NCBI GenBank assembly: GCA_048886185.1
Contig: JBHLKY010000027.1
Coordinates: forward strand, 1 to 32,000
Origin: Candidatus Hermodarchaeota archaeon
GTDB taxonomy: Archaea; Asgardarchaeota; Heimdallarchaeia; Hodarchaeales; Hodarchaeaceae
Direction: 5' to 3'
DNA: 32,000 nt
In this document: positions 1,168-14,420 of the stretch, in pieces
Layout of the letters: the number at the start of each line of letters is the position of its first letter
Position numbering within the stretch: position 1 is the stretch's first letter
Notes under the pieces: generated by a model
Databases searched by the model: none
The model's input: only the letters and a program-made list of their open reading frames with translations
What the model was told of the DNA's origin: nothing
Position numbers and translations under genes: made by a program

Positions 1168-1944
1168 ATGGATGAGGTTGAAGTGAATTTTCTAAAAGAT
1201 TTTTTAAGCATTCTAACTTTTAATAAACAAGGTTTACATGAAATATCGTTAAATGATCGTTCTACAATACACGCAATAATAGTAATTACAATCTTAGCAA
1301 TTCTTGAAACTGTATTTGGTCTATTTTATACAGTTTTAAACTCAAACAATATACATTCAGAATTAACGATTCATGGAATAATATCAACATTCTCTATTTT
1401 CGAACCCATTTGTAAAGGACTATTTACGTACTTATACGCTGAACAGTTACATGTTGAAACAACTATTAGTTTGATTATTTCTAGCTTCTTAATGTTCTAC
1501 ATAGTTATAATTTTATTTACATACATATTAACATTTTTTATTAATAAACTAGGAGGGGAAATCAAGCCAGTAAACTGTTTCAGGATTATTGGTTTATCTT
1601 TTATATTTGAAATAGGTTTACTGATCTTGATTGATCCAATTCGGTTGAGTACGGATGGAACTTCAAGACCATGGGAGATTTTTATCTTTATTTCATTAAT
1701 ACTCCAATTTATGGTCATTTTTTTAGGAATCATGGCAGTATCAGAATTAACTTGGTGGAAAATAAGTATTAGTATAACAATAACCTATTTTATCTCAATT
1801 ATTCTAGGATTCATAATGGCAGGTGTAGTAATCAGGGGTATCATCAATGACTTGTACATTTATAAACCGGGATTGGGTATTATTGGTTTTAACTATTGGT
1901 TGATAAAGAATTTCTGGTTTCATCGAACTACCTTTTTTTATTAA
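1168..1944 (+). CDS. YIP1-family multi-pass membrane protein
   Basis: Several hydrophobic segments. The N-terminal 'FL..ILTFNK.GL.EI' and central 'F.INKLGGEIK....FRIIGLSF' patterns resemble prokaryotic Yip1-domain proteins. Confidence 0.6.
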   Translation: MDEVEVNFLKDFLSILTFNKQGLHEISLNDRSTIHAIIVITILAILETVFGLFYTVLNSNNIHSELTIHGIISTFSIFEPICKGLFTYLYAEQLHVETTISLIISSFLMFYIVIILFTYILTFFINKLGGEIKPVNCFRIIGLSFIFEIGLLILIDPIRLSTDGTSRPWEIFIFISLILQFMVIFLGIMAVSELTWWKISISITITYFISIILGFIMAGVVIRGIINDLYIYKPGLGIIGFNYWLIKNFWFHRTTFFY

Positions 1945-2198: not shown

Positions 2199-3782
2199 AT
2201 GGATCGTAATGAGAAGAAATTTATCTCAGAAATGAATGAATATTCATATCAGAGGCTTCAAAAAACCGAAAAGGTAGGATATGGAAGAAATGGCTATGTA
2301 GAAAAAAACAATCATATAATAGAATTATCTATTTCTAATTTAAAACTAGAATATGTCCCAGAAAGCATAGAAAATTTAAAGGATTTAAATATTCTTTATA
2401 TGGGAGGAAATTCTCTTATTAAAATACCAGATTCAATCTTGACACTAAGGAATTTAGAAGTTCTAGAAGCTTGGCAAAACAGAATTGAATCAATCCCCAA
2501 AGATATTGGGATTCTAGATAAAGTCTGGCGATTACATCTTGCAGGGAATAAAATTACTAGCCTTCCTGAAAGTATCGGTAATCTGCCAATGAAGAAACTG
2601 TATCTTAAACATAATAATGTTAGTTATGTTCCTAAAAGTATTGGAAACTGGACACGTCTCGATGTTTTTGGTTTACCTCTTAACAACCTTCGATCACTAC
2701 CAGATACAATAAATGGCTGGAAAAATGTGCGAGTAATCTCGGTCTGGCAGAATAAGTTGAAAGAGTTACCAAATGTTCGCCTTAACGTTAAAGAATTACG
2801 CCTAAATAATAATTTTTTTACGGAAGTCCCTCCTCGGGTGTACGAGATTCAACAATTAAAGAAGCTGTGGTTGAATAGTAATCAATTAACAGAATTTCCT
2901 GAAATTCCTAAGGGAAATCTTCAAAATCTATGGTTTCTAAATTTACAGAACAACCTCCTCTCTTCATTACCAAAATCAATTCAAGGGTTACCTAATCTTC
3001 GGGACTTGAGACTCTCAGGTAATCTATTTAAGTCGTATCCAAACTGGTTAGATTCTCTGAAAGGTTGTAAAATAGATAAATCGGTTCATAAACAGCAGCA
3101 ACAACAGCCCGATTATATTGGAGTCAAGAAATATGTGAAATATCTCGAAGATAATCATTTACCAATGGAACACCTAGTAGAGATTAAACACTTTCAGAGA
3201 TACCTCGAAAATGAGAAAGGTTTCTCCAGAATTGTGAAAGCGAAAGCAAATGATATTAGAGATTATATTACAGATACAAAAATTACCGCCTTTGCCTTGA
3301 GATCCTTGTATCTATATTTCTCTTGGCTTCAGGATTACCCACTACGTCGAATTATCAAAGAAGAATTAGAAAATTACGCTCATTTAATGAGTATCAATCT
3401 TCAAGATGTCAAAAGGCTTATAGAGGAATCGCTTGCTGTTACTTCATTATTGGCATTGGATAGACCAGAAGAAAAATCGCCCCCCATTGTTATCCGACCA
3501 AAATCACTTGAACAGAAAACGGAAGGAGACGAATGGGAATCTTTCATGACAAAACTAGATCAGATTTCCTTAAACACTTTAAAAATCTTATTAAAATCTT
3601 CAAAACCTAAAATTGCTCTTGAAAAATATGCTAACAGTCAAAACAGACTTCCAGAAACCCTTCTTGAGTCCATTAACGAGATATCTTTAGAATCCATTGG
3701 TGACATAATTCTTGATCAAGAGACCTGTCAGATAACAGAAACTAATTATAAAGAAAAATTAAGTAAAATCTTATTTACGTGA
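2199..3782 (+). CDS. Leucine-rich-repeat protein with a central helical (integrase core-binding-like) domain and a C-terminal TerB_C-like domain
   Basis: About 11 LxxLxLxxNxL/I-xxLP repeats (~2340-3050) and a QQQQQP linker. The C-terminus DEWESF..KL...LPETLLESINEISLESIGDIILD (3528-3779) aligns with the C-terminus of the next ORF. Confidence 0.85.
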   Translation: MDRNEKKFISEMNEYSYQRLQKTEKVGYGRNGYVEKNNHIIELSISNLKLEYVPESIENLKDLNILYMGGNSLIKIPDSILTLRNLEVLEAWQNRIESIPKDIGILDKVWRLHLAGNKITSLPESIGNLPMKKLYLKHNNVSYVPKSIGNWTRLDVFGLPLNNLRSLPDTINGWKNVRVISVWQNKLKELPNVRLNVKELRLNNNFFTEVPPRVYEIQQLKKLWLNSNQLTEFPEIPKGNLQNLWFLNLQNNLLSSLPKSIQGLPNLRDLRLSGNLFKSYPNWLDSLKGCKIDKSVHKQQQQQPDYIGVKKYVKYLEDNHLPMEHLVEIKHFQRYLENEKGFSRIVKAKANDIRDYITDTKITAFALRSLYLYFSWLQDYPLRRIIKEELENYAHLMSINLQDVKRLIEESLAVTSLLALDRPEEKSPPIVIRPKSLEQKTEGDEWESFMTKLDQISLNTLKILLKSSKPKIALEKYANSQNRLPETLLESINEISLESIGDIILDQETCQITETNYKEKLSKILFT

Positions 3783-4078
3783 GGGAAATTCGAATAATCT
3801 TTAAGTATAATTATCTCATCTTATGAGTATGTTATAAACTAATATAAATGACTTCTCATCCAAAATTTAATCATGAATGCCAATTAACAACTGTTTTCAA
3901 ATTCTAGATACTGTTTGAAGTCATTCTGATATTGACTAAGGTGTGTAATAAAATTATAAACACTCAATTGTACTATCATCTTATTGGATAAATCATCTCT
4001 CTCTGAACCTGAACAACTTAAATAAACGAGTTGAGAGGATATGAATAGTCTGATGAGTTTTACAGAAGGCATCGTTCG

Positions 4079-7000
4079 ATGTCAACAATAATAAGAATCG
4101 TTGCAATGGATAGCAGGTATAATAACCAAATACTAGAAGAATTTTCCCTAGCTATACCAAAAAGGTTTGCAAATATTTCCCCTGTAGGGATGAAAACGGT
4201 AATTATTGCTTGTCAAGGAAGTTACACCCCCAAAATCGGAGATTATATTACTTTTAAGCTTTCTTCTGAAAGCTCTTTACTCTATAGTGAATCTCCAGCT
4301 GATTTGTATGCTCAGATTAATAGAACCCTATCATCAGAGAGGTTATTATCAACTGATATTACACAAGAAGAACTAAAATCAATCCTCCAAGGATCTCCAA
4401 AAGAAATTGATTATTGGGTAGTAGCATCAGTTCTGGGTTTCACTATTCCAGGACGAAAAAAGATTTTGATACCGGAAGGCTCTCTCTTAGGAAATCTAGG
4501 GAAGATCCCTAATCCTGAATCCATTATAATTTTCCTAAACCAATATATGGAATCTCTATTTTACACATTCCCCCTTAAACTAATAAATTATCTGGTTTAT
4601 AACTCGATTCAAGGGAGTAAGTTTTGTCAAAGTGGGAATATCCAGATATTAGAAAAAATTTTACCAAATATCCTGAAAAACGTCAATCAGCACTTTTTAA
4701 AGGTTGAAAATAAAGGACTTCTTGAAATATTTTCACCACAAATGAATTTCAGCATTACAGATTATACTGCGAATATTGATGATATTAAACAGGAATATAT
4801 TGATTGGCTTGCTTCAAATGAGCCACTTGTGGATTTAGTATCAGATATACTGAAATATACTGAAAAAAAATTAAGTTTAATCTTGAAGTATCATGGGAAA
4901 GTAGAAATTAATCCAAGACCACTTTCAGGTCATATCAAGAATATAGTACAAACAGAACTACAGAGATATGAAGGGGAATTACAACCAAAAAGGGAGGTGA
5001 TGCGAAAAAAACCAGCTTTTGCAGAATTTGAAATAAGTTTCACCACTAAAAAATACATCAAAACATCAATCAAAGACCAAGAAGTAATACCTAAGATTAG
5101 GGATAGAAAACAAATTTTCACTAAAGCAAATATAAGTCATGAAAATATCACTGAGCTTGAGTCCAGAATGAAGCTCGCTGCTCAATCTCTGGATTTTAAG
5201 AAAGCATCAATAATTCGGGGGAAAATTGAGGAGTTAAAGAGAAATCGGAACAATAGAAAAGCCAATAAGTATTTTTCGGAGTTTAAAACAGCCCCAGCTG
5301 AGAAACTTCCTAAAATCCCTAAGTTTGTATCATTTGATCAATATTGGCCTACCTTGGACACACTGAATGAGGATCAAAGAAAATGGTATGATTATTGGGT
5401 TTCAGAAATCGAGAATGGACATTATTATCCCACCGATTTGTCATATATTTTCCTATATATCTATCAAGCACTTGATTATGAAGATAAGGAAAAAGGTTAT
5501 CGTATATTACGAGATTTATGGATCCATTATCGAAGAGAACATCCTAGACTTGATCGTTACTTAATTGATTGGTTAACAGACTATATCCTCCTTCACAATT
5601 GTCATTATGATCAAAGGACTATAAATAGGGAATTATTCAAATTTCACTCACAATACACACTTGAATGTCTAGATTCAATACTAACATTGTTTCCTCCCCG
5701 CTCGTTTAGAGAAATGCCAATAGAATGGATCAATATTCTCGCAAATAATAGCATAATAAGTAGTTCATTTTATTCATCGAAATCATCCGTCATAAATGAA
5801 ATAATTCCTGAAGTGCTGGATGCAATCGATAGATATTATCATGAGAATGAAAGCATTAGCTTATTAGAGAAATTTAAACCCGATAAAGTTGGACGATTCG
5901 TTTTTAATCGTGCCCTCAAAAATGAAAGTTATCTTACAAAGACTATTGAAGTTTTCCCTTACACGAAATCTCTACCTCTTCTAATTTTCATTTCTGAGGT
6001 TGTAAACACAACAGAAAATAAATTACGTAAGTATTTTCGATTTCCAGCCCTTCCGCATATCAGCATACTTGAAAGAGAAATTGAAAATGTCATTGAAATG
6101 ACATTTACGAAATTTATCAGTGAGTTAAGCCTATCAGAACAAGAAATAGATTTACCATTCATTGATGCAGCGCAAAAATATGTCAATAGGGTAGAAGATG
6201 AAGCTAAACCTGTTCCTCTATACCAATTTCAACCAAATTACCAAGATATGACAAAAGCTCAATTACAGTGGTACTTTTATTGGCGTAACCAGGTTAGGAG
6301 GGGAAATTTTCTCTCAGCTCAGATTGGGTATGTTATGTTGTATATCTATGAAATTATTAATGACATAGGAATCGAAAATCATCAGGAGGGATATAAACGA
6401 TTATTGGCTATCTGGGAATATTACCGTATTGAGAATCCCGAATTGGATGAATATTTACCTGAATGGATTGTGGAATATGCAATTCTAAAAGAGATATCAA
6501 TTGATGGTATAGAAGAACTCTATCGTAATATCTTGAAACGATTAGATGGAAGAGAACAGAGAGACCTTCGATATGAATTAACTGAACTTCTAATTTCTCA
6601 GTATCATCATGAAGCTTTTAACAAAATCCCAATCAAAATGATTTATGAGCTCGTGAGATATTTAAGTTTTCCTCCCTATACCCGATTAAATGACTCTGTT
6701 CGAACCACAATGGATCAACACGTTAGTATTATTTTAAATGAAGTGAACACATACTATTTACAAAAATATAGCAAATCATTACTAGAATTCCATCATCCCT
6801 CTAAAAAAAGGAGAATCCCCTTTGTCCTTGCTCGCTATTTCGGTGAGGTCGATATATTAGAGGTAAAAAGTTATTCACGGCAGTTCTTAAATTTTCTAGA
6901 TAATACAATAAAATATATTCACAATCGTTTTCGTGATATCGAGTTAGATACAACTAAAACCCGATTAAAGGCTGAAATTCCTGATCCTGAAGTTGAAGCA

Positions 7001-7528
7001 ATAATTGATTATTATTTCATCGACAACTTAAATGCCACAAACATCACCCCTAAATATTCTAAACTAGCTTTACAGGTACAAAGTGGTAATCTAGGTGTAG
7101 ATCAAACTAAAATAAAAATATTAACCAAAGAATCTGATGAAATTCAAACACTGCTAACAAATTCGGATATATATAAATTTGAATTGGAAGAATCAATAGG
7201 AGATTTAGAAGAGGATCGAGGAGAAATTGAAGTAAACATTAATCAAGAATCTGCTCAAGAAGAAACAATCGAATTAGATGAGTGGGAGTTATTCAAATCA
7301 AAACTGAATGATATTCAACTGAAGTTTTTAAAGTCACTATTATTCAGTGAAAATCCTAAAGAACAATTAGATCAGATTGCTGAACAAACAGGGACCTTAC
7401 CAGAAACAATCATAGAGTCTATTAATGAAATTGCGATCGAGGTCATTGACGATATAATTATTGATAGTGAATTGCTTAACGTTATTGACGAATATCTAGA
7501 TAAAATCAAGTCAATTCTTAAGATATGA
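4079..7528 (+). CDS. Large TerB_N/TerB_C-domain protein (unknown N-terminus, UVR motif, two TerB_N, acidic linker, TerB_C)
   Basis: TerB_N-type motifs FDQYWPTLDTLNEDQRKWYDYW...SYIFLYIYQ (from 5333) and YQFQPNYQDMTKAQLQWYFYWR...GYVMLYIYEIIN (from 6218). TerB_C-type motif DEWELF...LPETIIESINEIAIEVIDDIIID (from 7277). UvrB/C-type motif LESRMKLAAQSLDFKKASIIRGKIEEL (5147-5239). Confidence 0.85.
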   Translation: MSTIIRIVAMDSRYNNQILEEFSLAIPKRFANISPVGMKTVIIACQGSYTPKIGDYITFKLSSESSLLYSESPADLYAQINRTLSSERLLSTDITQEELKSILQGSPKEIDYWVVASVLGFTIPGRKKILIPEGSLLGNLGKIPNPESIIIFLNQYMESLFYTFPLKLINYLVYNSIQGSKFCQSGNIQILEKILPNILKNVNQHFLKVENKGLLEIFSPQMNFSITDYTANIDDIKQEYIDWLASNEPLVDLVSDILKYTEKKLSLILKYHGKVEINPRPLSGHIKNIVQTELQRYEGELQPKREVMRKKPAFAEFEISFTTKKYIKTSIKDQEVIPKIRDRKQIFTKANISHENITELESRMKLAAQSLDFKKASIIRGKIEELKRNRNNRKANKYFSEFKTAPAEKLPKIPKFVSFDQYWPTLDTLNEDQRKWYDYWVSEIENGHYYPTDLSYIFLYIYQALDYEDKEKGYRILRDLWIHYRREHPRLDRYLIDWLTDYILLHNCHYDQRTINRELFKFHSQYTLECLDSILTLFPPRSFREMPIEWINILANNSIISSSFYSSKSSVINEIIPEVLDAIDRYYHENESISLLEKFKPDKVGRFVFNRALKNESYLTKTIEVFPYTKSLPLLIFISEVVNTTENKLRKYFRFPALPHISILEREIENVIEMTFTKFISELSLSEQEIDLPFIDAAQKYVNRVEDEAKPVPLYQFQPNYQDMTKAQLQWYFYWRNQVRRGNFLSAQIGYVMLYIYEIINDIGIENHQEGYKRLLAIWEYYRIENPELDEYLPEWIVEYAILKEISIDGIEELYRNILKRLDGREQRDLRYELTELLISQYHHEAFNKIPIKMIYELVRYLSFPPYTRLNDSVRTTMDQHVSIILNEVNTYYLQKYSKSLLEFHHPSKKRRIPFVLARYFGEVDILEVKSYSRQFLNFLDNTIKYIHNRFRDIELDTTKTRLKAEIPDPEVEAIIDYYFIDNLNATNITPKYSKLALQVQSGNLGVDQTKIKILTKESDEIQTLLTNSDIYKFELEESIGDLEEDRGEIEVNINQESAQEETIELDEWELFKSKLNDIQLKFLKSLLFSENPKEQLDQIAEQTGTLPETIIESINEIAIEVIDDIIIDSELLNVIDEYLDKIKSILKI

Positions 7529-8889
7529 TTGTAGATGAGATACTAGGACGAAACAGAAGAATGTCAAAGAGAAGAATCCCTCAACGTGTTTCAGCAATAA
7601 TACTAAAATCTTTGAATGCTGGAGTGGTACCTCGTATAGGTTTAGAACACATAGCTGTAGGCCGAAAAGAGGAAATAGAATCATTATTAGAAGATCTGGA
7701 AAACATTGAAGTTGGTAGTGCAGCTTTTAGGTTTTTTATTGGACGATACGGATCTGGCAAAAGTTTCCTGATTCAACTTCTAAGAAATTATGCCATGGAT
7801 CGTGATTTCGTGGTGGCTGATGTAGATTTATCCCCCGCAAGACGATTCATTGGGAGTGGAAGTAAAGGAGTCGCAACATATCGTGAACTCATCACAAATA
7901 TGTCCACAAAAACACGACCTAGTGGGGGAGCATTAACAGCAATTTTAGAAAAATGGATCTCCAAAATTCAATCCATGGTGATTACTGAAAAAGGAATCAA
8001 ACCTGGTGATCCTGTTTTTGTTGATCTGGTGGAAACAGAGATAATCAATGCGGTTAACAACATAAAAGATCTTGTTCATGGTTTTGACTTTGCTATCGTT
8101 ATCTCAACGTACTGGCGGGGCCATAAACTAGGTGAGGAAGAGACAAAAGAAAATGCCCTTAGATGGTTACGAGGGGAATATACAACAAAAACAGAGGCAC
8201 GAAATGCCTTAGGTGTCAATATCATTGTTGATGATGACTCTTGGTATGATTATATCAAATTACTAGCACGATTTGTCACAGAAATTGGATATAAAGGACT
8301 TTTAGTCTTTTTTGATGAAGCAGTCAATTTGTATAAAATCACTCATACTCAATCGAGGACTAATAATTATGAAAAATTGTTGACAATGTATAATGATACC
8401 ATGCAAGGAAAGGCAGAGTATCTCGGAATTTTCGTAGGTGGTACTCCTCAATTTCTCGAAGATAGACGAAGAGGCCTCTATAGTTATGAGGCACTTCATT
8501 CCCGACTTGTTGGAAGTCGATTTACTAAAAATGGATTGCGTGACATATCAGGTCCTATTATCAAACTTGAACGGTTGACTCTGGAAGAGATTTTTGTTTT
8601 ATTAACTCGTGTTATGAATATTCATGCTCTTCACTACAAGTACAACCCTTTTTTGTCAAATGATGAACTTCAAGAATTTATTAAAGTAATAGTTAGTCGT
8701 ATTGGAGCTGATAAACTCCTTACTCCTCGAGAATTTGTTCGAGAGTTCATTATCCTATTGAATATCTTACGGAAAAATCCTGAACAATCTTTCTTAGGAA
8801 TAATTCAAGGAGAAGACTTCAAACCACAAGCCCCGAGTCAAATAGATGAATCAGTAAAAGGAACGGAGTTTGAGGAATTTAAATTATGA
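7525..8889 (+). CDS. DUF2791 / BrxD-type P-loop (AAA+) ATPase
   Basis: N-terminal SLNAGVVPRIGLEHIAVGRKEE, Walker A GRYGSGKS, Walker B LLVFFDEA, and 'LRWLRGE' and 'TPREF' motifs typical of the family. ATGA overlap with the upstream gene; an alternative ATG lies at 7561. Confidence 0.9.
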   Translation: MIVDEILGRNRRMSKRRIPQRVSAIILKSLNAGVVPRIGLEHIAVGRKEEIESLLEDLENIEVGSAAFRFFIGRYGSGKSFLIQLLRNYAMDRDFVVADVDLSPARRFIGSGSKGVATYRELITNMSTKTRPSGGALTAILEKWISKIQSMVITEKGIKPGDPVFVDLVETEIINAVNNIKDLVHGFDFAIVISTYWRGHKLGEEETKENALRWLRGEYTTKTEARNALGVNIIVDDDSWYDYIKLLARFVTEIGYKGLLVFFDEAVNLYKITHTQSRTNNYEKLLTMYNDTMQGKAEYLGIFVGGTPQFLEDRRRGLYSYEALHSRLVGSRFTKNGLRDISGPIIKLERLTLEEIFVLLTRVMNIHALHYKYNPFLSNDELQEFIKVIVSRIGADKLLTPREFVREFIILLNILRKNPEQSFLGIIQGEDFKPQAPSQIDESVKGTEFEEFKL

Positions 8890-13399: not shown

Positions 13400-13415
13400 T
13401 AGTTGATTTTATGTG

Positions 13416-14420
13416 ATGAAAACAAAAGCAGTAATCAATAAATTATTGGCTTCAAAGGATCCAGCCATTCAATTAAAGGTGCATCTACGCTTATTAGGAA
13501 ATGATTATAAGAGTCGTGAAGTTCAAAAAATTGCATCAATAATCAAGGAAAGGTCACCTGTAGTATCAGGATTATTTAATGCCCTCTCAGCTCAAGAAAA
13601 GTTATTTAAAATTAGAAAAGTTGGAGAGGGTCGTGTTTATAAAAAATGGGAGGGAATTCATTGGGTTTTGGCGGACTTGGCGGATATCGGTTATCCCCCA
13701 GGAGATCAAACATTACTAACAAGCATAAAGCTTGAGTTAAATTGGTTATTAAGTAAGAAGCGTTGGGCAAGCAAGAAAACAATTAATAATCGCAGAAGAT
13801 TCTGTGCTTCTCAAGAAGGAAATGGATTATTTTCAATTATTTCATTAGGACTTGCCGAATATGTATGGGAGGCATGTACAACACTCGCAGATCGTTTAAT
13901 TACCTATCAATGGGAAGATGGAGGATGGAATTGCGATGTACGGCCTGAGGCAATAAATTCATCTTATCATGAAAGTGCTATTCCACTAAGAGCATTGAAT
14001 ATCTTTGAAAGAAAAACAAACGATCAAGTAGCAAGAAAAGCAATTGATCAGGCGTCAGAATTGTTTCTCAAAAGACAATTCTATAAAAGAAGGAGTACCA
14101 ACAAAATTATTGATAAACAATGGACAAAATTATCATATCCTTCATATTGGATGTATAATATTTTATTTGGATTAAAAGTGATTGCTGAATGTGGGAAAGT
14201 TAAAGATCACCGTTGTAAAGAAGCGTTAAAATTACTTGAATCCAAAGAACTCACCGAGGGGGGATTTCCAGCAGAAAAAAGGAATTTTTTTAGAAATAAG
14301 AGGTCTCGTTATTCTCCAGTCGATTGGGGAGAGGTGAATAAAAAGAAAATGAATGAATGGGTTACAATTGACGCGTTATACATCTTAAAAGAAGCAAATA
14401 GGATAGATGTGGAAATATAA
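13416..14420 (+). CDS. Uncharacterised alpha/alpha-toroid (prenyltransferase/squalene-cyclase-repeat-like) protein
   Basis: QW-like repeats (YQWEDGGWNC, KELTEGGFPAE) and 'YKKW.G.HWVLA.LADIGYPPGD'. The ATG at 13416 is preferred over the GTG at 13413. Confidence 0.6.
   Translation: MKTKAVINKLLASKDPAIQLKVHLRLLGNDYKSREVQKIASIIKERSPVVSGLFNALSAQEKLFKIRKVGEGRVYKKWEGIHWVLADLADIGYPPGDQTLLTSIKLELNWLLSKKRWASKKTINNRRRFCASQEGNGLFSIISLGLAEYVWEACTTLADRLITYQWEDGGWNCDVRPEAINSSYHESAIPLRALNIFERKTNDQVARKAIDQASELFLKRQFYKRRSTNKIIDKQWTKLSYPSYWMYNILFGLKVIAECGKVKDHRCKEALKLLESKELTEGGFPAEKRNFFRNKRSRYSPVDWGEVNKKKMNEWVTIDALYILKEANRIDVEI

Follow-up and report, generated by a model that had tools for sequence, protein, structure and literature searches.

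A leucine-rich repeat protein with an SngA-like TerB_C tail beside a predicted Shango defence operon in one Asgard genus

Gene content of the locus

We examined a stretch of 32,000 nucleotides from an Asgard archaeon (hereafter the window) and identified four genes, sngA, sngB and two copies of sngC, that lie adjacent to one another on one strand with 4-bp overlaps at positions 7525, 8886 and 11117 (Table 1). By its Pfam and PADLOC matches this block is a Shango defence system. The sequence-only reading of the same DNA, made without database searches, had described its members as a defence scaffold, an ATPase and a DUF2791 operon, and all of these correspond to the named system. [quoted passage not shown] 2022, 10.1101/2022.05.11.491447; Johnson et al. 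2023, PMC10250203). The system is widespread and was reported to be over-represented in Asgard archaea (PMC11291487).

The two helicase copies were 49% identical to each other (375/759, BLASTP), and SngB showed a weak likeness to AAA_16 according to Pfam. Residues 1-400 of SngA (window 4079-5300) received no family assignment apart from the UVR motif at residues 356-388, with a sub-threshold hint of BRCT_2 in the N-terminal 400 residues or so (E 0.0093); many representatives, at 1100-1280 aa, have the long form of SngA as well. The second helicase is immediately followed by a 335-aa ORF (window 13413-14420) with no Pfam or PADLOC match, whose presence after Shango was inconsistent among the related loci. 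The gene that precedes sngA encodes the protein of interest here, P0001, which joins a leucine-rich repeat (LRR) array to a TerB_C domain.

Table 1. Genes and features at the locus, in window coordinates, with the basis of each assignment. Residue numbers are those of the protein concerned.
Feature	Coordinates	Strand	Basis or remark
Yip1-like membrane protein gene	1168-1944	+	
P0001 gene, 527 aa: LRR, helical middle domain and TerB_C, no TerB_N	2199..3782	+	ORF, Pfam
LRR array of P0001, 11 repeats, residues about 41-292	2319..3074	+	Repeat starts, per-column entropy
Helical middle domain of P0001, residues about 301-400	3099..3398	+	AF2 pLDDT about 90
Long helix of P0001, residues 390-420, TerB_C block 1, first half of predicted SngB interface	3366..3458	+	Co-fold; aligns to SngA 1008-1027
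TerB_C core of P0001, residues 438-527, winged-helix-like	3510..3779	+	AF2 model; second half of predicted interface
Intergenic region, 296 nt	3783..4078	+	Moves with sngA; probably own promoter or leader
sngA, 1149 aa: UVR motif, two TerB_N, TerB_C (residues 993-1143)	4079..7528	+	Pfam; PADLOC SngA, E 5.3e-89
sngB, 454-aa PF10923 (BrxC_BrxD, formerly DUF2791) ATPase	7525..8889	+	Pfam, E 7.5e-165; PADLOC SngB, E 1.8e-187
sngC copy 1, Lhr-like DEAD/DEAH helicase, 744 aa	8886..11120	+	PADLOC SngC, E 8.7e-226
sngC copy 2, 760 aa	11117..13399	+	PADLOC SngC, E 1e-210

Domain architecture of P0001

The N-terminal half of P0001 matched the LRR_4, LRR_8 and LRR_14 Pfam domains (E 6e-19, 7.1e-19 and 2.1e-18, respectively). 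About 11 repeats with aromatic residues at the beta-strand positions had been proposed from the sequence alone, and we recovered that same number, each of 20-24 residues, from ten motif starts plus one repeat ahead of them at residue 40, and the array spans about residues 40-290. At the exposed x positions of the LxxLxLxxN motif, Trp, Tyr or His is conserved (Y67, W92, W110, H113, Y135, H138, W183, W224 and W245), and the concave face of the array was conserved and rich in aromatic residues.

The tail of P0001 had been read as the same domain that ends SngA, and this was confirmed. The two starting points given for the common stretch were exact (D444 of P0001 is encoded from nucleotide 3528 and D1067 of SngA from nucleotide 7277), and from there the two proteins aligned without gaps over 65 residues, with 35/65 identical and 44/65 positive positions, a score that was reached by 0 of 100,000 shuffles. 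BLASTP of the whole proteins returned 29/57 identical residues (E 5e-11). The TerB_C Pfam profile, PF15615, matched residues 396-517 of P0001 through its positions 16-143 of 148 with 31.1 bits, above the cut-off of 26.3 (E 3.3e-7). In a 106-sequence alignment of TerB_C, residues W446 (the Trp that opens the core), I492-N493 and A496 (the I-N-x-x-A motif) and G501-D502 of P0001 fell in invariant or near-invariant columns, and the TerB_C core carries W446, N493 and G501-D502 as family-wide conserved residues.

Profile comparisons placed the start of the similarity further upstream. A profile of the P0001 orthologs and one of the orthologs of the neighbouring SngA paired residues 400-526 of P0001 with 1008-1147 of SngA (probability 98.4, E 6.9e-15, 124 columns), and the PADLOC SngA profile, in its positions 317-525 of 528, matched residues 312-523 of P0001 (E 2.5e-13). 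When a profile of 15 P0001 orthologs was compared with one of 15 canonical SngA proteins from bacteria, each about 500 aa long, hhalign paired residues 363-527 with SngA 327-527 (probability 99.5, E 3.4e-23). Judged from these alignments, the module common to P0001 and SngA is about 165 residues long, more than the sequence-only reading had seen, and it consists of the end of the helical domain, the long helix and the winged-helix-like TerB_C core. Pfam gave no TerB_N match in P0001 at E <= 0.01, the N-terminal half being LRR; because TerB_N is absent, P0001 is SngA-like in its tail only and is not a member of the SngA family. The most fitting description is an SngA with an LRR in place of the TerB_N part. 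A P-loop domain was not found in P0001 by Pfam either.

Predicted fold of the C-terminal half

Single-sequence AF2 modelling of the whole of P0001 was unusable (mean pLDDT 35.6), and the structure model covers residues 296-527, was built on the 106-row alignment and had a mean pLDDT of 84. It shows a long helix at residues 380-418, followed by a disordered linker. We treated the fold assignments of this model as leads, because VIA-align Z values under about 13 can arise from common helical bundles or arrangements: the nine best rows for the middle domain were all N-terminal core-binding (SAM-like) domains of tyrosine recombinases (Z 6.9-9.4), among them 5vfz, 5hxy, 3nrw and 1a0p (Z 9.1-9.4, rmsd 2.1-2.6 A over 81-88 residues), and the TerB_C core matched the winged-helix domains of ArsR-type repressors, ORC/Cdc6 and NLR/STAND proteins at Z 6-6.9. 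The middle domain also gave a weak Pfam match to Phage_int_SAM_1 (E 0.08). The catalytic domain of tyrosine recombinases had no counterpart in P0001 by Pfam (no Phage_integrase match), the C-terminus being TerB_C instead. Foldseek of the C-terminal model against the PDB returned nothing at E <= 0.001 and only weak winged-helix rows.

Distribution and gene order

The TerB_C profile search recovered 256 proteins among 1.84 billion representatives, and the LRR and TerB_C combination was represented by one single 50%-identity cluster in the same set. We detected no LRR in other TerB_C proteins among the best 149 representatives, and a word-index search for longer TerB_C proteins returned 23 proteins and no new architecture. 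By word-index search P0001 had 15 orthologs at 74-81% identity, with the next-best matches at 38%. Across 83 genomes of the class, full-length orthologs were present in 7 out of 22 species of one Asgard genus and nowhere else. SngB was present in the same 7 species and in one further genome, G050, which has a diverged copy (73% identical), and all 7 ortholog-bearing species carry this Shango lineage (7/7). A search of the whole genome from which the window comes found two TerB_C domains only, both at the Shango locus.

We compared eight loci, the window and seven relatives. In 7 out of the 8 the LRR-TerB_C gene precedes sngA in the same orientation, at a spacing of 0.28-0.55 kb or with a reverse-strand cassette of 1.5-6 kb inserted between the two genes, and the genes further upstream of the LRR-TerB_C gene differ between loci. 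The sequence-only reading knew of no such fusion and had left room for the architecture being common and unlinked to operons of this kind; what we found is a rare fusion tied to the Shango operon, restricted to one genus with full co-occurrence and near-complete synteny, in genomes that are all close kin, so that these counts overstate independence and common ancestry may account for part of the synteny and co-occurrence. As for the inserted cassettes, those at L001 11926-12555 and L003 12178-16786 contained an SBP_bac_5 solute-binding protein, an SBBP-repeat protein and small ORFs.

At the eighth locus the LRR-TerB_C gene is intact and lies 260 kb from a decayed Shango (L010 9027-13278, in G001/G058 on contig 1, about 721 kb). 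Of SngA, a 222-aa ORF is left there, the last 178 residues of which are 71% identical to SngA 972-1148, and it is followed by an intact SngB and a single SngC. Given this unlinked intact copy, the LRR-TerB_C protein may work without a full SngA, or independently of Shango.

The diverged Shango of G050, a species of the same genus (L017 2622-14357, on contig 58), comprises an SngA of 1048 aa, the diverged SngB and two SngC, and has no LRR partner. About 870 bp upstream of it we found a divergently transcribed gene for a 646-aa TPR protein, in which no TerB_C was detected. We also considered whether the second helicase copy goes together with the LRR partner; this was rejected, since G050 has two helicases and no such partner.

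Selection, upstream regions and origin of the TerB_C tails

The P0001 gene is under purifying selection, with a dN/dS of 0.16 overall, and 0.10, 0.16 and 0.26 for the LRR, the middle domain and TerB_C, respectively. The unlinked copy, 260 kb from its Shango, gave values of 0.13-0.19. The LRR also had the lowest mean entropy among the regions (0.38). Diversifying selection was therefore rejected for the LRR, by its dN/dS as well as by its entropy, and P0001 differs in this from many immune receptors. Its LRR is the most constrained part of the protein, which speaks for a conserved ligand rather than for a surface shaped by an arms race.

The 296-bp gap between the LRR gene and sngA, which had raised the possibility that the two genes are transcribed separately, was confirmed. 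The 300 nt upstream of sngA were conserved at 82-87% column identity across six loci (the window, L001, L003, L011, L012 and L013), and this region stays with sngA in the two loci where a reverse-strand cassette is inserted. The region upstream of the LRR-TerB_C gene was not conserved (53% column identity). Because the upstream region of sngA is conserved and that of the LRR gene is not, the two genes probably have separate promoters, and separate transcription, as had been suspected, is likely on this comparative evidence; the conserved region is probably a promoter or an operator. An RNA fold of the region had no covariation support (1 out of 40 pairs compensatory), and a promoter and terminator scan with bacterial models, uninformative for an archaeal host, returned 10 sites against 10.2 expected. 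Two further observations concern the conserved region upstream of sngA: its identity is higher than would be expected from the 70-75% identity of the SngA proteins, and it contains an invariant AT-rich near-palindrome around 3940-3962.

A tree built from 167 TerB_C domains did not make the LRR clade (93/100) the sister of the clade of the neighbouring SngA, although each of the two was well supported; the SngA clade joined (95/71) the diverged SngA of G050, and the backbone was unsupported. Forcing the LRR and SngA clades together cost 8.2 lnL and was not rejected (AU p 0.375). The suggestion that the two TerB_C copies of the locus are sisters, having arisen by local duplication, therefore fares unevenly: the tree does not pair them, and the AU test leaves the pairing acceptable.

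Predicted docking on SngB and TerB_C in other contexts

We co-folded the C-terminal half of P0001 with SngB. The ipSAE values were 0.69, 0.69 and 0.68, compared to 0.00 for the best of 3 controls. As a reference, 58/80 solved complexes and 2/110 mismatched pairs reached that mark, counts that hold roughly here, as our own alignments were used; the partner pLDDT was at least 74 and the contact agreement at least 62%. P0001 is thereby predicted to bind the ATPase, in agreement with what had been proposed for its tail. The predicted interface consists of residues 390-420 and 479-508 of P0001, that is, the conserved TerB_C blocks common to SngA, and includes the family-wide conserved N493 and G501-D502. 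A PDB sequence search found no solved relative of TerB_C or of SngB, so the co-fold is unlikely to reproduce a memorised structure.

The genomic surroundings of other TerB_C proteins point in the same direction. About half of the TerB_C representatives have no TerB_N, and many of them carry coiled-coil N-termini instead. In other taxa, 4 out of 5 readable contexts of such proteins directly adjoin a PF10923 ATPase: the gene of P0129 overlaps that of the ATPase, P0229 lies beside an ATPase and also a helicase, and the cyanobacterial P0278 and P0249 lie beside an ATPase with no helicase. The fifth, P0143, had no ATPase neighbour in its locus. The coupling of TerB_C to PF10923 ATPases across taxa thus appears strong, not absolute, and its presence in unrelated taxa suggests that the docking interface is general. 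Together with the modelled interface, these neighbourhoods support in silico the earlier proposal that TerB_C is a shared docking module for the ATPase. Since SepT, a septal protein of the cyanobacterium Anabaena, also carries TerB-C (PMC10653889), the domain is not exclusive to PF10923 ATPases.

Two loci of the cyanobacterial type (L020 5334-10116 and L018 613-3504) contained a 441-aa TerB_C protein without TerB_N and a PF10923 ATPase, with no helicase; in L020 a DUF815/KAP-like ATPase lies upstream of the pair. These loci may represent a helicase-less relative of Shango.

Proposed role of P0001

We consider it somewhat more probable than an even chance that P0001 is an accessory, SngA-like adaptor, which attaches to SngB by way of TerB_C and supplies Shango with an LRR binding surface. 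In such an arrangement, the TerB_C-containing tail of about 165 residues would dock on the SngB ATPase, and the ATPase-helicase engine would be engaged by two input subunits, the TerB_N-type SngA and the LRR-type P0001. The LRR would bind a conserved protein ligand, and the event would be passed to SngB and SngC. We favour a sensor over a brake for this subunit; this preference, the kind of ligand and any anti-viral effect of P0001 are what we infer from the evidence above.

As a competitive brake, the second role that the sequence-only reading had offered, P0001 would compete with SngA for its site on SngB and would hold off or titrate the engine until the LRR is occupied or P0001 is degraded. 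We regard this as rather unlikely, even though the blocks that form the predicted interface are just those that P0001 has in common with SngA, so that both tails probably claim the same SngB surface; the separate promoter region of the LRR gene would allow independent dosage, and the conserved LRR (dN/dS 0.10) would fit a conserved ligand, possibly of the host. However, SngB may offer more than one site, and ATPases of this kind are often oligomeric, which would allow mixed assemblies. Moreover, purifying selection on the gene persists in the genome with a truncated SngA and one helicase, which would be unexpected if it did nothing but restrain a system in decay.

It is improbable that P0001 is a neighbour without a functional link to Shango, namely an Asgard LRR protein with an acquired TerB_C tail that stands next to sngA through gene order inherited within one genus. 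In favour of this, LRR proteins are numerous in the genus, cassettes of 1.5-6 kb have inserted between the two genes, which are 260 kb apart in one genome, and TerB_C is present in SepT, a non-defence protein (PMC10653889). Yet the only two TerB_C domains of the window's genome are both at the Shango locus, the presence or absence of P0001 over 22 species follows this Shango lineage (7/7), the more distant upstream genes being variable, and the co-fold with SngB, a prediction, passed with clean controls.

Very improbable is a one-component transcription regulator, in which the LRR senses a ligand and the core-binding domain and the winged helix bind DNA such as the 300 nt upstream of sngA: the fold matches to the N-terminal domains of tyrosine recombinases (Z 9.1-9.4) and to winged-helix repressors such as CzrA and SmtB (Z 6.5-6.9), the separately transcribed gene upstream of the operon and a leader conserved at 82-87%, above non-coding expectation, would agree with it. 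Against it, those Z values are within the range of common helical arrangements, and the Foldseek search had no match at E <= 0.001. The module also forms the C-terminus of SngA and of other TerB_C proteins whose translation is coupled to that of the ATPase, a position more in keeping with a subunit interface than with a domain that binds an operator, and the co-fold would bury the region of the recognition helix against SngB.

Read as an adaptor, P0001 possibly shows how Shango takes its input. The predicted interface between the TerB_C tail and SngB is concrete and offers a testable handle on the system, and a natural LRR attached to a TerB_C tail is a possible bait for the Shango trigger. 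For prokaryotic immunity, P0001 would be a further example of modular sensors acting in trans. In a wider version of the adaptor reading, which we hold to be quite doubtful, TerB_C would be a general PF10923 docking module into which interchangeable sensors of the TerB_N or LRR type plug in trans, amounting to a split NLR-like receptor. If true, an LRR sensor, a winged helix and a P-loop ATPase would form such a split receptor in the closest prokaryotic relatives of eukaryotes.

Comparison with known systems

NLR and STAND immune receptors combine an LRR or TPR sensor, a P-loop NTPase and a winged helix. P0001 and SngB resemble them, including bacterial ones such as Avs, in that an LRR module and a winged-helix-like domain would be joined functionally to a P-loop ATPase; they differ in that the ATPase here is a separate polypeptide of family PF10923, with no NACHT or NB-ARC domain. 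The two are alike in their logic and do not belong to one family. As for BREX, SngB and SngC matched the PADLOC models of BrxD (E 1.2e-50) and BrxHI (E 1e-114), but there are no other BREX genes at the locus and the matches to the Shango models are far stronger.

Other TerB_C proteins without TerB_N, SepT included, are like P0001 in placing TerB_C on a different N-terminal module, either coiled-coil or unassigned. In those loci, such a protein is the sole TerB_C protein and replaces SngA, whereas P0001 adds to a complete SngA. Anantharaman, Iyer and Aravind reportedly predicted, in 2012, neighbourhoods of TerB-N/TerB-C proteins with a DUF2791 ATPase and an Lhr-like helicase, which are the same domain families arranged in the same operon logic as at this locus; we know of no LRR and TerB_C architecture among them.

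The closest system is Shango itself: sngA, sngB and sngC are all present, and the tail of P0001 is a homologue of SngA's C-terminal half. The described system has three genes and one TerB_C protein, whereas here there is a second TerB_C protein, with LRR and without TerB_N. In addition, SngA is twice the usual length and has two TerB_N domains, the helicase is present as two paralogs, and the host is an Asgard archaeon. The locus is the known Shango system with an extra LRR partner, and the partner is the new part.
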